From the IMG/VR virus record IMGVR_UViG_2541047827_000004: a DNA stretch of 13,297 nt. One strand, given 5' to 3'. This document shows, piece after piece, positions 1,440 to 4,511 of this stretch. The position numbers and the translations under genes were made by a program. Origin of the DNA: a virus (taxonomy: Duplodnaviria > Heunggongvirae > Uroviricota > Caudoviricetes). Below the pieces are notes generated by a model, which saw nothing but the letters and a program-made list of their open reading frames with translations, made no database searches and was not told the origin of the DNA. The first letter of the stretch is position 1. Each line of letters starts with the position of its first letter.

Positions 1440-2333
1440 GTGATGAATAAAAAATATGAACTGGTTGTTAAGGGGATAAATAATTACGGGGATAAGGTTA
1501 CTGTTACTGTGAAGTCGGAAGGTGACGGGCAAGCGTCGCTGTTGTTGCCAGATGTGGCGATTAGTCTTGACCGTACTGAAGGTGCCACGCTGGAGTTTTA
1601 CGAAGCTGAGGCGAAAAAGCAGGCGAAGCAGTTTTTCATGGATGTTGCTGCCGGGTTATGTGAAGGGGATGAGCAGTCGCCGGAAAAGCGCCCCGTAATT
1701 TTAGAGGCGCAGGATGTGTTGATAACCTACAAAGGAAAGCTACCGGGAAGAATTACTTGTTCTCTGAAGATGCCGCCGTCAACACTGCGGTCAGAAAAAG
1801 ATGATGTTGAATCACGTATTGAAAAACTGGAGAGCTACGTCGTTGAGCTGAATAAGAAATGGTCGATATTGGTGCCTTCTGGCGATGAAAAGCAGTTTGC
1901 TGCGTTTGACGATTATTGTCGGAAAGTGATGAGCAGAAATCTCGCAGAGTGTTTCAGTATTCATAATGATAATTTCAGTGACCCGGAATGGGAGTGTAAC
2001 CGGCCATCCTTTGTTGTATCCGGTGATGCTGGGAAAATAACCATCTCAGAAAATGGGAAAGTAACACCTCCATCGCACCAGCACAGTGAGGAGCTCATTG
2101 AATTTGCCATTGATTACCTGAAGAACAATAAAAAGCAGGGGCTGATGAAGCGCGTTGGCCGTTGCATGGGATATCTTCAGGTAGCCGCTGAGATTGAAGC
2201 GCTGGCCAGTGGTGCTGATAAGGATGCAATTGTGCGGGAGGCTCTTCTTCGTGATTTTAATACTCCACCCTTTAAAAAAGGGCCGGCTTACTGGCTTCAT
2301 CCGGGGCTGACTTATCTTAAAGTGCGTATTTAG
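1440..2333 (+). CDS. Hypothetical soluble protein (296-297 aa) inserted between holin and endolysin; function unknown
   Basis: Long intact ORF. The likely start is ATG 1443 (GTG at 1440 also in frame), with GGGGAGAG 7 nt upstream, 4 nt after the holin stop. No predicted TM segment or signal peptide and no motif I recognise; six Cys residues. Confidence 0.75.
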   Translation: MMNKKYELVVKGINNYGDKVTVTVKSEGDGQASLLLPDVAISLDRTEGATLEFYEAEAKKQAKQFFMDVAAGLCEGDEQSPEKRPVILEAQDVLITYKGKLPGRITCSLKMPPSTLRSEKDDVESRIEKLESYVVELNKKWSILVPSGDEKQFAAFDDYCRKVMSRNLAECFSIHNDNFSDPEWECNRPSFVVSGDAGKITISENGKVTPPSHQHSEELIEFAIDYLKNNKKQGLMKRVGRCMGYLQVAAEIEALASGADKDAIVREALLRDFNTPPFKKGPAYWLHPGLTYLKVRI

Positions 2334-2369
2334 TGGGCCAGGGACAGCGGCTGAATATTTAATATATCC

Positions 2370-2903
2370 ATGAACACCAAAATCAAATACGGCCTGTCGG
2401 CTGCCGTTCTGGCGCTGATTGCCGCTGGTGCGCCTGCGCCTGACATTCTCGACCAGTTTCTGGATGAAAAGGAAGGTAACCACACCACGGCATACCGTGA
2501 TGGTGCAGGTATCTGGACCATCTGCCGTGGTGCCATCATGGTGGATGGCAAACCTGTCGTTCCGGGCATGAAGTTGTCGAAGGAAAAATGCGACCGGGTT
2601 AACGCCATTGAGCGTGATAAAGCGCTGGCGTGGGTGGAGAAAAACATCAGAGTGCCGCTGACCGAACCCCAGAAAGCGGGGATCGCGTCATTCTGTCCGT
2701 ACAACATTGGTCCCGGTAAGTGTTTCCCGTCGACGTTTTATAAACGAATTAATGCAGGTGATCGCAGGGGAGCGTGTGAGGCGATTCGCTGGTGGATTAA
2801 GGACGGTGGCAGAGACTGCCGTATTCGTTCAAACAACTGCTACGGTCAGGTATCCCGTCGTGACCAGGAGAGCGCGCTGGCGTGCTGGGGTATCGACAGA
2901 TAA
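2370..2903 (+). CDS. R: SAR endolysin (T4-lysozyme-like muramidase, phage 21 R21 / DLP12 RrrD-like)
   Basis: N-terminal weakly hydrophobic Ala/Gly-rich segment (GLSAAVLALIAAGAPAP) typical of a signal-anchor-release domain. Canonical lysozyme catalytic triad spacing E-x8-D-x5-T in EGNHTTAYRDGAGIWT. Close match to remembered RrrD. Confidence 0.9.
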   Translation: MNTKIKYGLSAAVLALIAAGAPAPDILDQFLDEKEGNHTTAYRDGAGIWTICRGAIMVDGKPVVPGMKLSKEKCDRVNAIERDKALAWVEKNIRVPLTEPQKAGIASFCPYNIGPGKCFPSTFYKRINAGDRRGACEAIRWWIKDGGRDCRIRSNNCYGQVSRRDQESALACWGIDR

Positions 2904-2992
2904 GCAGAATATTTTGCTGAAAAATAAGGTATGGCCACGCGGGCGGATAACACGAAATCCTGCGAACTGGCGAAACGTAAGTGAATAAAAGT

Positions 2993-3033
2993 AAAAACCC
3001 CGTTTGTTGGCACCAAGCGAGGTTTTGTGTTTC
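2993..3033 (+). terminator. Possible intrinsic terminator/attenuator downstream of the endolysin gene
   Basis: Imperfect stem AACCCCG (2996-3002) / CGAGGTT (3018-3024) with one mismatch, followed by a U-rich tract TTTTGTGTTTCT. Confidence 0.3.
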
Positions 3034-3059
3034 TGACCTTGAGTAAGGCAAGGGAGAAC

Positions 3060-3242
3060 ATGGCGAAGTGTAAACGAATTCTGTTGAGGTTGACTATGAA
3101 AAATGGCCTTGAACTGAAAGCGCCTGTAACTGATGACATCAGCAGAGCACTGGCTTTTGCCATTAAGTGGGTGGCGGTCGGTGTTGCTGTGTCCCCGATG
3201 CTGTATGGGCTGGCAAAACTGGTCATTGCGTTGAAATCGTGA
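3060..3242 (+). CDS. Small hypothetical protein (60 aa) with a C-terminal hydrophobic segment
   Basis: ATG at 3060 preceded by AGGGAGA. Translation [11 protein letters not shown]...[29 protein letters not shown] has a basic N-terminus and a hydrophobic C-terminus. Lies between endolysin and Rz. Confidence 0.4.
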
Positions 3243-3256
3243 AGGGAGGATTAAGC

Positions 3257-3388
3257 ATGTCAGACAAACTCATAACGCTGGCGAAGATCCTCTGTGTAAT
3301 TGTCGGCATTTCATTTTCACTAATGCTGGTTGCTCTTTTTCTTTCCATGGCCTGGATGATGTTGTCTTCGTCGGGGTTGCTGGGGTGA
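3257..3388 (+). CDS. Small hydrophobic single-TM protein (43 aa), stop overlapping the Rz start
   Basis: ATG at 3257 with GGGAGG 6 nt upstream. Translation [43 protein letters not shown]. Its TGA (3386-3388) overlaps the Rz GTG (3385-3387) as GTGA. Confidence 0.4.
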
Positions 3389-3858
3389 ACATAAACCGAA
3401 TGCTTTCCGCGTTTATCGTTATTCTGCTGGTGGCCTGTGGTGCGCTGTGGATGGCAACAGACCATTACCGTGATAACGCGATTACCTACAAAGCGCAGCG
3501 CGATAACAAAGCCAGTGAACTGAAGCTGGCGAACGCAACCATTACTGATATGCAGGTGCGCCAGCGCGATGTTGCTGCGCTCGATGCAAAATACTCGAGG
3601 GAATTAGCCGATGCGAGAGCTGAAAATGAAACTCTTCGCGCTGACGTTGCCGCTGGTCGTAAGCGCCTGCGGATCAACGCCACCTGTCCAGGCTCCGTGC
3701 GTGAAGCCCCCACCACCTCCGGCGTGGATAATGCAACCGGCCCCCAACTGGCAGACACCGTTACACGGGATTATTTCACCCTCAGAGAGCGGCTGATGAC
3801 GATGCAGAAGCAACTGGAAGGGGCGCAGGAATATATCCGTACTCAGTGCCTGAAATAA
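3385..3858 (+). CDS. Rz: Rz inner-membrane spanin (i-spanin)
   Basis: N-terminal TM followed by ...[51 protein letters not shown]..., near-identical to remembered lambda Rz. Start is GTG 3385 or ATG 3400. Confidence 0.9.
3626..3796 (+). CDS. Rz1: Rz1 outer-membrane lipoprotein spanin (o-spanin), embedded in the +1 frame of Rz
   Basis: [56 protein letters not shown]: lipobox VVSAC and proline-rich core matching remembered lambda Rz1 ([14 protein letters not shown]). Nested entirely within Rz. Confidence 0.85.
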
Positions 3859-4184
3859 GTTTTGTTGATGCGCCGTATCGTCGCTATATTCCCTCATTAA
3901 CAGAGACCGCAGCCCGACAGGGAGACTCCTCTGCGCGAGTGTGCGGGGATAATCAAAAACGATACACACCGGGGTTTACCGCGTTAACGGAGCGCGGCGT
4001 TGTCCCCTCATAGTCGCCTGTCCGGTGCGATGGTGGAAGAAACAGGAAGCTGTATTACAGAAAGTGCTACTACTGTATCCCGATGCGATGTATGTAATGT
4101 GAGTCAGATAATGGCACAGGATGTGGTGATGTGGCAGTCTGGAACACAGGATATATTGTCAGAATAAGACCCGTAGGAATAAAA

Positions 4185-4511
4185 ATGAAAAGACGCCTTT
4201 TACTACTTTTTCTGTTATCTGTCCTGGCAGTGGGATGCTCGCAGCAAAAAGCTGATGAGCCCCGGCAATTAGTGACGGTGTATCCACGATATCCGGAATA
4301 TGCTGCAGCAAATTATATCAAGGGGCTGGTTGAGGTTAAGTTCGATATTGGTGCTGATGGGACTGTGACACGGATCGTTTTTCTCCGCTCAGAGCCTCAT
4401 AATTTGTTTCGTGATGAAGTGGTGAAGGCCATGGCGAAATGGCGATTTGAAAAGAATCGCCCCTGTCAGGGAGTGAAGAGACAATTTATCTTTACGCCGT
4501 CACGTCCTTGA
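4185..4511 (+). CDS. Small lipoprotein with a TonB C-terminal-like domain (109 aa)
   Basis: ATG 4185 with AGGAA upstream. Signal peptide plus lipobox (LAVGC). The mature part, VYPRYPEYAAANYIKGLVEVKFDIGADGTVTRIVFLRSEPHNLFRDEVVKAMAKWRF, aligns motif-for-motif with the E. coli TonB C-terminal domain ([53 protein letters not shown]). Confidence 0.75.
   Translation: MKRRLLLLFLLSVLAVGCSQQKADEPRQLVTVYPRYPEYAAANYIKGLVEVKFDIGADGTVTRIVFLRSEPHNLFRDEVVKAMAKWRFEKNRPCQGVKRQFIFTPSRP

Follow-up and report, generated by a model that had tools for sequence, protein, structure and literature searches.

What do two very small membrane-protein genes do between the endolysin and spanin genes of a lambdoid prophage? 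The DNA that raises the question, referred to below as the window, is a stretch of 13,297 nucleotides (nt) from the Caudoviricetes record IMGVR_UViG_2541047827_000004. It represents the late region of an Escherichia coli lambdoid prophage with a lysis cassette of the phage 21 type (pinholin, an endolysin of the signal-anchor-release (SAR) type, and Rz/Rz1). The genes run in the order S21-type holin, DUF1327/YdfR-like gene, endolysin R, the two small open reading frames (ORFs) considered here as ORF A and ORF B, Rz/Rz1, a lipoprotein with a TonB_C domain, and the terminase and head genes. Because ORFs of this length are not unusual (42 of at least 30 amino acids (aa) occur in 3.5 kb, which makes ORF size alone uninformative), we judged whether they are genuine by conservation. 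ORF A and ORF B are conserved coding frames and not spacer. We propose, tentatively and at somewhat less than an even chance, that their products are late-expressed accessory peptides of the inner membrane with a modulating role in lysis, and that translation continues from them into Rz.

Two conserved coding frames between endolysin and spanin

Both ORFs occur where a preliminary description of the sequence had placed them, and each has the ribosome-binding site (RBS) reported there: GGGAG (3052-3056) for ORF A, with a spacing of just 3 nt to the ATG, and GGGAGGA for ORF B (Table 1). The predicted proteins are identical to the PGAP-annotated WP_001446668.1 (ORF A) and WP_001280932.1 (ORF B), both listed at NCBI as hypothetical proteins. 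They match PHROG families of unknown function over their full lengths, ORF A matching phrog_1115 (E-value 3.7e-42, residues 1-60) and ORF B matching phrog_4906 (2.1e-23, residues 1-43); the ORF A family also corresponds to phrog_4493 and phrog_3246, likewise without functional annotation. Each exact sequence is found on at least 1000 public contigs, where the proteins bear names such as 'Transmembrane protein' or 'Uncharacterized protein', and the A-B arrangement is covered to at least 80% in 990 of 5426 complete E. coli genomes (about a fifth).

To evaluate selection on ORF A we compared 23 haplotypes, all intact and full-length, that come from E. coli and Salmonella. The ratio of nonsynonymous to synonymous polymorphism (pN/pS) is 0.24 in the annotated frame versus 0.9-3 in other frames, the phase-locked antisense frame excepted, and variable sites are biased towards third codon positions (16/9/34 at positions one, two and three). 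For the same loci, the control values are 0.11 for R and 0.43 for Rz. Between E. coli and Salmonella, synonymous divergence (dS) is ~0.52 and nonsynonymous divergence (dN) is ~0.13. Frameshifted copies make up ~3%, and the N-terminal motif is retained in distant relatives despite synonymous changes. A profile search over 1.84 billion cluster representatives recovered just 23 related clusters, all of 20-87 aa, that share the motifs (K/R)Y(K/R)RILLRLT-MKNGLExxAP and AFAI(K/R) as well as a hydrophobic helix at the C-terminus, the last residues of which are ...ALKS or ...RWW. ORF A is a member of a small family of enterobacterial phage proteins (48-64 aa) under purifying selection.

The basic N-terminus and hydrophobic C-terminus ascribed to ORF A in the preliminary description are both present, the former with a net charge of +4 and the latter only weakly hydrophobic. 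The best 19-residue segment has a dG(octanol) of -4.1 kcal/mol, which places it between the SAR domain of R (+1.3) and the second transmembrane domain (TMD2) of the holin (-8.8), and the helical segment contains a conserved Lys/Arg. AlphaFold2 predicts a helix at residues 2-15, a loop, and a second helix at 23-59. A 48-aa form that starts at Met13 is annotated by many pipelines. Met13 is conserved, and the Arg codon two positions before it is the rare AGG in all lineages, with variable synonymous sites nearby. In the window this codon generates a GAGG 6 nt before Met13, and GAGG or GGAG occurs 6-9 nt upstream of Met13 in 22 of 23 lineage representatives. The N-terminal extension is itself conserved as protein, distant relatives included. 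Given the invariant AGG and the conservation of both Met13 and the extension, ORF A is likely made as two isoforms, one of 60 aa with a +4 amphipathic N-terminal extension and one of 48 aa.

ORF B, which has a single start in the window, is intact with the same stop codon in 198 of 198 copies that represent 31 haplotypes and ~25% nucleotide divergence. Its pN/pS is 0.53 overall, 0.41 across codons 9-30 (the helix core) and 0.79 in the last 13 codons, and variable sites are spread over the codon positions (18/15/17). The central codons are near invariant in nucleotides and the variation falls in mosaic blocks. The replacements that have occurred preserve hydrophobicity: the mean Kyte-Doolittle change is +0.50, compared with -1.25 for random mutations, a value reached in none of 5000 simulations. 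For polar or charged replacements the expectation is 7.5 and the observed number 3; for stops, 1.9 are expected and none is observed. The hydrophobic stretch has a dG(octanol) of -13.6 kcal/mol, compared with -9.7 for the Rz membrane helix, and AlphaFold2 predicts a single helix at residues 2-38 (predicted local distance difference test score 90). Intact in every copy and biased towards hydrophobicity-keeping replacements, ORF B behaves like a translated membrane helix that is selected for its character more than for its exact sequence. A profile search for the family reached no further than E. coli, Shigella and one Citrobacter, and it recovered no larger protein with ORF B as a domain; plasmid matches taught us nothing further.

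The idea that these are small single-helix membrane peptides within a lysis operon is thus borne out by hydropathy and AlphaFold2 predictions and by the pinholin/SAR-endolysin cassette around them. The frames are conserved, with codon-level selection on ORF A and an ORF B that is intact throughout. This conservation excludes, for ORF A, the alternative previously kept in reserve, a non-coding spacer with an Rz leader, and makes it unlikely for ORF B.

By tblastn, full-length ORF B occurs just upstream of Rz in 276 phage records, mostly of Shiga toxin (Stx) phages, and these include the 933W reference genome, which has no annotation at that position. ORF B is always in the R-Rz gap. Its immediate upstream neighbour is ORF A (as in the window), an antirepressor gene, Ant (933W type), or a 31-aa membrane ORF, p31, and its RBS is retained in all three contexts. 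Within the flanking stretch examined, an R-type endolysin lies upstream in 190 of 200 copies, accompanied by an S21-type holin in 164 of those 190; the remaining 10 have neither an R-type endolysin nor an S21-like holin in that stretch, and a lambda-S-type holin accompanies none of the 200.

The overlap reported between ORF B and Rz is also present. The ORF B stop (TGA, 3386-3388) overlaps GTG 3385, which opens the Rz frame (GTGA), but PGAP prefers ATG 3400 as the Rz start; under either start the ORF B stop lies no more than 12 nt from the Rz start. We consider GTG 3385 the likely start because it restores the MN(x)NR-type basic N-terminus of other Rz alleles (here MNINR) and because one haplotype (L126) has ATT in place of ATG 3400. 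Rz alleles without the overlap have their own RBS.

More generally, the R-Rz gap is a variable slot, in which antirepressor genes of two types and as many as four tiny ORFs are also found. The latter arrays (L005 2403-2849, L057, L064 and L108 among the loci compared) consist of p31, B, A' and p28, membrane ORFs linked by GTGA or TGATG overlaps. The p31 sequence is MKMIKMDWKFLLVWLIPFLWVVAQLITAIKG. A' is a truncated A-like ORF of 38-40 aa that starts at a GTG overlapping the ORF B stop, and p28, MSAELIRAMAFAIRIVAIAVLVWAIRWW, corresponds to the C-terminal end of an A-family protein of the RWW type. In several database proteins, B and A' are fused as a result of 1-nt frameshifts.

Genomic contexts and putative control elements

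The ORF A family adjoins lysis genes in 12 of 16 distinct lineages, far above the ~8% that we estimate for random placement, yet not universally. In nine lineages the gene is directly upstream of an inner-membrane spanin gene, an arrangement seen in Salmonella and other enterobacterial prophages, usually with a gap of 0-10 nt to the spanin start, and the translationally coupled downstream spanins belong to three unrelated families (Rz/PF03245, DUF2514/phrog_312 and phrog_214). The genes upstream represent three families of holin and no fewer than four types of endolysin (161-189-aa lysozymes, GH19 and one of 140 aa). One other lineage has the gene upstream of the holin, and in three it lies between the endolysin and small lipoproteins. 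In some phages (L007 2655-2837, L223 3767-3949 and L232 3620-3799) the A-family gene is translationally coupled to a ~60-aa lipoprotein instead of an inner-membrane spanin. These lipoproteins have no PHROG function, one of them matches phrog_7528, and there is no obvious inner-membrane spanin nearby. They could be outer-membrane or single-component spanins that have escaped recognition. We also noted a metagenomic protein (P0239, encoded on a 554-nt ENA contig) in which the N-terminal half of an S21-type holin is joined to the C-terminal 23 residues of ORF A (...SPSQW|VAVGVAVSP...). Either a chimera introduced by assembly or genuine recombination could account for it.

A hairpin with the features of an intrinsic terminator immediately precedes ORF A. 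In the window allele it is modest (-12 kcal/mol, z-score -1.6) and has a G-to-A mismatch in the stem at 3020, versus -19 to -24 kcal/mol and z-scores of -3.7 to -5.5 in relatives. A strong hairpin precedes ORF A in every lineage that has the full-length gene, with stem sequences that differ across at least five lineages. In all lineages an A-tract precedes the stem, so termination may work in both directions. No sigma-70-like promoter is predicted on the sense (plus) strand between the terminator and ORF A or ORF B. With a strong terminator upstream and no predicted sense promoter, expression of ORF A should depend on antiterminated late transcription.

On the minus strand, 21 of 28 distinct A-family loci have a sigma-70-like promoter motif at one and the same position, where it overlaps the first codons of ORF A. 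Its -10 element reads TATACT or TATAAT, and the motif points towards the bidirectional-looking terminator. The key base of the -10 comes from a Tyr codon; among the 21 representatives with Tyr here, 20 have TAT and one has TAC, although nearby synonymous sites vary, and codons 5-14 are identical in nucleotides between E. coli and Salmonella despite a dS of ~0.5 elsewhere. However, the codons that make up the hexamers (K/N-Y-K and L-T-M) are themselves conserved, and conservation of position is therefore confounded by that of the protein. The -35 element, with 4-5 of 6 matches, is weak, the spacer is 18 nt, and scans find such a site no more often than expected by chance (1 found, 0.5 expected). 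A promoter-scan tool calls the site in two relatives (L035 and L209) but not in the window, where the Cys4 (TGT) allele degrades the -10 to TACACT. We hypothesize that this conserved promoter-like site gives ORF A a layout similar to that of type I toxin-antitoxin modules. The window haplotype, in which the Cys4 allele and the terminator-stem mismatch weaken both parts of the putative antisense gene together, is common to ~25-28 sampled loci.

Other small elements accompany ORF A. A leader of ~90 nt (within 2904-3033), which comprises a stem-loop with the loop AACACRAA followed by the bidirectional-looking terminator, travels with the gene and is found behind non-homologous endolysin or antirepressor genes in both E. 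coli and Salmonella. It could represent an antisense-RNA terminator, or else a small RNA derived from the 3' untranslated region of the endolysin mRNA. The region has no Rfam match, and we rejected identity with the known prophage small RNAs AsxR, AgvB and Pas, as published prophage small-RNA maps place these upstream of the holin and not in the R-Rz region. A small hairpin (CCTTG-N6-7-CAAGG) abuts the RBS of the A-family gene in most lineages. In Salmonella-type copies (L209, L215-L221 and L230) an 8-codon ORF (ATGTGTAGGGAGGTGTATTCCCTGTGA) lies ~30 nt upstream of the ORF A homologue, and its stop overlaps the GTG start of the long form, another GTGA coupling. The frame of a 17-codon ORF in the window leader (2931-2984) is not retained in Salmonella relatives.

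Table 1. Features of the lysis cassette and of the R-Rz gap in the window
Feature	Position	Strand	Basis
S21-type class II (pin)holin, 71 aa	1223..1438	+	Pfam PF04971 (E 2e-32); PHROG holin families; PGAP 'class II holin family protein' (near-identical locus L001)
DUF1327/YdfR-like gene, 297 aa, between holin and endolysin	1440..2333	+	Pfam PF07041 (E 3e-39); phrog_1085, full length
Endolysin R, 177 aa, SAR-type N-terminus MNTKIKYG + LSAAVLALIAAGAPAP	2370..2903	+	Pfam Phage_lysozyme (E 7e-24)
Conserved stem-loop GCGGAUAACACGAAAUCCUGC in ORF A leader	2943..2963	+	Same element behind non-homologous endolysin genes in Salmonella; no Rfam match
Intrinsic-terminator hairpin (A-tract, 9-bp GC stem, T-tract), directly upstream of ORF A	2993..3033	+	Fold energies; relatives
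ORF A, 60-aa long form: amphipathic, basic helix at the N-terminus, then a linker and a C-terminal helix of weak hydrophobicity	3060..3242	+	PGAP; phrog_1115; pN/pS; AlphaFold2
Putative antisense sigma-70-like promoter (TAGTCA-18-TATACT in relatives)	3067..3096	-	Same position in 21/28 distinct A-family loci
ORF A, probable short form, 48 aa, from Met13	3096..3242	+	Internal RBS GAGG 3087-3090, made by rare Arg codon AGG
RBS of ORF B, GGGAGGA, 6 nt upstream of ATG	3244..3250	+	Read from sequence
ORF B, 43 aa, single strongly hydrophobic helix	3257..3388	+	PGAP WP_001280932.1; phrog_4906; 198/198 intact; AlphaFold2
Rz inner-membrane spanin	3385..3858 (PGAP start ATG 3400)	+	Pfam PF03245 (E 2e-47); junction alleles
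Rz1 outer-membrane spanin, embedded in Rz, lipobox LVVSAC	3611..3796	+	ORF and translation

The N-terminal segment of R is weakly hydrophobic (mean Kyte-Doolittle 1.74), and the product embedded in Rz is presumably the counterpart of lambda Rz1. The DUF1327/YdfR-like gene begins with a GTG 1 nt past the holin stop, in a slot that holds shorter YdfR homologues in K-12 Qin and Stx phages. Downstream of Rz/Rz1, where lambda and 933W have bor, is a 108-aa lipoprotein with a TonB C-terminal domain and the lipobox LAVGC (4185-4511, plus strand). Upstream of the cassette, on the opposite strand, is a gene for an IraM anti-adapter (131-466; the name is that given by PGAP at the near-identical locus L001), with a partial DUF1737 gene and hypothetical genes as neighbours.

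What the peptides may do

According to the reading we prefer, ORF A and ORF B would be two unrelated, independently mobile genes carried as cargo at the endolysin/spanin junction. With a terminator before ORF A and no predicted sense promoter, both peptides would be made only from the Q-antiterminated late transcript, alongside the lysis proteins, and translation would pass from ORF B to Rz via the GTGA overlap. Both peptides would be inserted in the inner membrane, N-terminus inside, and would contribute to lysis as accessory factors that are not essential, which is the weakest step of the proposal. ORF A, possibly holin/antiholin-like in its dual start and its marginal helix with a conserved Lys/Arg, may be a generic membrane-active modulator that works whatever the holin, endolysin or spanin family, and ORF B may be a helix-helix partner specific to the pinholin/SAR-endolysin/Rz set. 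Together they would adjust the timing or sharpness of the membrane step of lysis. That they are accessory is indicated by K-12 Qin, in which R is joined directly to its spanin without either ORF; R is likewise joined directly to Rz in lambda. The ~3% of frameshifted ORF A copies also speak for dispensability. Precedents for such accessory functions are P2 lysA, hokW-sokW of prophage Sp5 (PMC8621323) and the Mu gp25 releasin (PMC9239132).

Several observations weigh against this. The ORF A family occurs in tail or baseplate modules in four lineages, so co-location with lysis genes is not obligatory, and the holins, endolysins and spanins beside it are unrelated, which speaks against a specific partner protein. 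Both ORFs encode small proteins with a predicted helix beside the endolysin, as a holin would be, and the preliminary description had raised a holin-like identity; yet the charged C-terminal tail is lacking (ORF A ends ...VIALKS and ORF B ...SSSGLLG, with no charge past position 10), and neither protein matches a holin or other lysis-protein family in Pfam, PHROG or NCBIfam. The similarity between the ORF A helix and S21 TMD2 is local and weak (shuffle p 0.005, uncorrected for the 5 tests) and does not convince; like the holin/A chimera, we take it as a lead and not as evidence of homology. ORF B shows no synonymous excess (17 synonymous changes, 16.3 expected), and our literature search found no paper that mentions either ORF.

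Could the two genes instead be late cargo that has nothing to do with lysis, settled at a junction that merely tolerates insertions? Their target might be a different membrane process of the host or the phage; they could, for example, exclude superinfecting DNA, inhibit a transporter, protease or stress sensor of the host, or help virions to assemble; many bacterial small membrane proteins regulate larger membrane proteins. The variability of the gap, with its antirepressor genes and tiny ORFs, fits this explanation, as do the A-family genes near tail-fibre, tail-chaperone and baseplate genes and the independence of ORF A from any one holin, endolysin or spanin family. We nevertheless consider it unlikely, though a real possibility, given the adjacency of ORF A to lysis genes in most lineages and the fact that ORF B has never been seen outside the R-Rz gap. 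Exclusion, which had been suggested for these ORFs at the outset, is a poor fit in particular: exclusion factors are normally expressed by the prophage, whereas ORF A is insulated by a terminator and no promoter for the prophage state is predicted, and no defence family in PADLOC is matched. ORF A, ORF B, p31 and p28 match nothing in Pfam, NCBIfam or PADLOC, nor in Rfam at E-values up to 1. It is also conceivable, but improbable, that ORF B and the truncated A-like copies are nearly neutral relics, kept open by a ribosome relay to Rz or by homogenising recombination, with a peptide that has no function. The absence of a synonymous excess in ORF B, its even distribution of variable sites, its relaxed C-terminal tail and its near-invariant centre amid mosaic blocks could all be read this way. 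So could the stop/start overlaps (GTGA, TGATG) that chain ant or A to B and then to A' or Rz, the A' and p28 fragments, which show that the gap gathers recombination debris, and the ability of lambda and Qin to manage without either gene. However, a relic would hardly remain intact in every copy at such divergence while it keeps its hydrophobicity beyond what any simulation achieved and avoids polar changes; the good RBS in three upstream contexts, and the separate RBS of non-overlapping Rz alleles, also argue against a mere relay. For ORF A itself, the pN/pS rules neutrality out.

The preliminary description had remarked on a resemblance to type I toxin peptides, and both products are indeed small hydrophobic peptides with one predicted membrane helix each. 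It had singled out the 43-aa ORF B, but no promoter-like site is found for ORF B on either strand across 2300-4300, and it matches no Rfam or toxin family. By prediction, ORF A has the more toxin-like layout of the two, with both of its elements weakened in the window allele. In such a module, a constitutive antisense RNA would start within the first codons of ORF A, cross the RBS and leader, and end at the bidirectional terminator, silencing leaky toxin that would otherwise be made only under antiterminated late transcription; the toxin might serve prophage stability, abortive infection or a hokW-like boost to lysis. The recurrent minus-strand site, the near-fixed TAT codon, the A-tract and the unusual nucleotide identity of codons 5-14 are consistent with this, as is the modelled small, membrane-bound peptide, and hokW-sokW in Sp5 provides a precedent (PMC8621323). 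Still, we find the idea rather doubtful. The promoter hexamers may just mirror protein conservation, the -35 is weak and the scan result is near chance expectation, and both the -10 and the stem are impaired in the window allele. Furthermore, no plus-strand promoter for a toxin mRNA is predicted for ORF A or ORF B, no described toxin or antitoxin family in Rfam, Pfam or NCBIfam is matched by either (the sole near-match in the toxin-family search, DUF3930 at E 0.08, is below threshold), and published maps put prophage small RNAs elsewhere.

A bolder scenario, which we also regard as a long shot, combines elements of these. ORF A would define a phage module not described before, a tiny membrane toxin accompanied by a bidirectional terminator upstream and under two gates: only late, antiterminated RNA polymerase could transcribe it and, in the lysogen, a cis-antisense RNA that starts within its first codons would silence it. 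The form with the +4 extension and the core form would be antagonistic, a holin/antiholin-like pair able to fit any lysis cassette whatever its holin, endolysin or spanin family, and ORF B would be a helix partner specific to pinholin cassettes. In most Stx phages it would tune lysis and, through lysis, the release of Shiga toxin.

Why might such small peptides matter? Lysis timing sets burst size and, in Stx phages, also the time at which Shiga toxin is released, and ORF B is without annotation in the 933W reference and the majority of Stx phage records. Should one or other peptide alter when the pinholin/SAR-endolysin pathway is triggered, the lysis model of the medically most important lambdoid phages misses a component. 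The ORF A family, with its terminator gate, two starts and marginal helix with a conserved basic residue, is a compact and testable case that could show how phages silence a membrane-active peptide in the lysogen and then use it late. Should the peptides prove inert, annotation would still gain, and the R/Rz junction would emerge as a recombination slot that accumulates tiny membrane ORFs.

Comparison with known lysis and toxin systems

Which known systems do ORF A and ORF B resemble? They are not spanin subunits, as both are too short and lack a lipobox. Nor are ORF B or p31 recognizable as remnants of a spanin N-terminal helix, since they, like ORF A, show no significant similarity to the N-termini of Rz, phrog_214, DUF2514 or RzpQ proteins (best shuffle p 0.007 among 28 tests across the four families). 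They do not constitute a moron, given that the terminator is upstream and not downstream of ORF A, no promoter is predicted, and ORF B runs into Rz.

The closest positional parallel may be LysA of phage P2, which Ziermann et al. reportedly described in 1994 as a non-essential membrane protein, encoded between endolysin K and the inner-membrane spanin gene lysB, that affects the timing of lysis and not lysis as such. In most lineages ORF A occupies the same slot between endolysin and inner-membrane spanin. LysA differs in being ~140 aa long with several membrane helices, and in having neither sequence similarity to ORF A nor an upstream terminator or dual start, so the comparison is one of position and presumed role only.

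Dual starts are a familiar feature of holin genes. Lambda S107/S105 and phage 21 S21-71/68 are holin/antiholin pairs in which the longer form has extra N-terminal positive charge. ORF A is similar in having Met1 and Met13, each with an RBS and possibly both used, and an extension of net charge +4, and its marginally hydrophobic helix is reminiscent of the dynamic helices of pinholins and SAR endolysins. However, its starts are 12 codons apart and not 2-3, it has a single C-terminal helix without a charged tail, and its cassette in the window already has a genuine holin. The pinholin pathway is summarised in PMC6139136.

Among accessory proteins, the Mu gp25 releasin (DUF2730) is a 99-aa protein of N-out/C-in orientation, anchored by a membrane helix at its N-terminus and with an acidic domain of 73 aa in the cytoplasm (PMC9239132). 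It resembles ORF A and ORF B as a small membrane-tethered protein near a SAR endolysin and spanins that controls the membrane step of lysis and is not a holin (PMC9239132). The peptides considered here are 43-60 aa, have the opposite predicted orientation and match no DUF2730 profile; with nothing like the acidic cytoplasmic domain of ~70 aa, they are not releasins.

Finally, the type I toxin-antitoxin locus hokW-sokW of the lambdoid Stx2 prophage Sp5 encodes a small membrane peptide that is made on induction, speeds growth arrest and aids phage release (PMC8621323). Hok-family toxins are transcribed from a promoter of their own, have a mok leader and are controlled by a Sok RNA that has been demonstrated, and the locus lies outside the lysis cassette; in this they differ from ORF A and ORF B, which match no Hok family. 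Nevertheless, if antisense control of ORF A proves true, hokW-sokW would be its nearest analogue.

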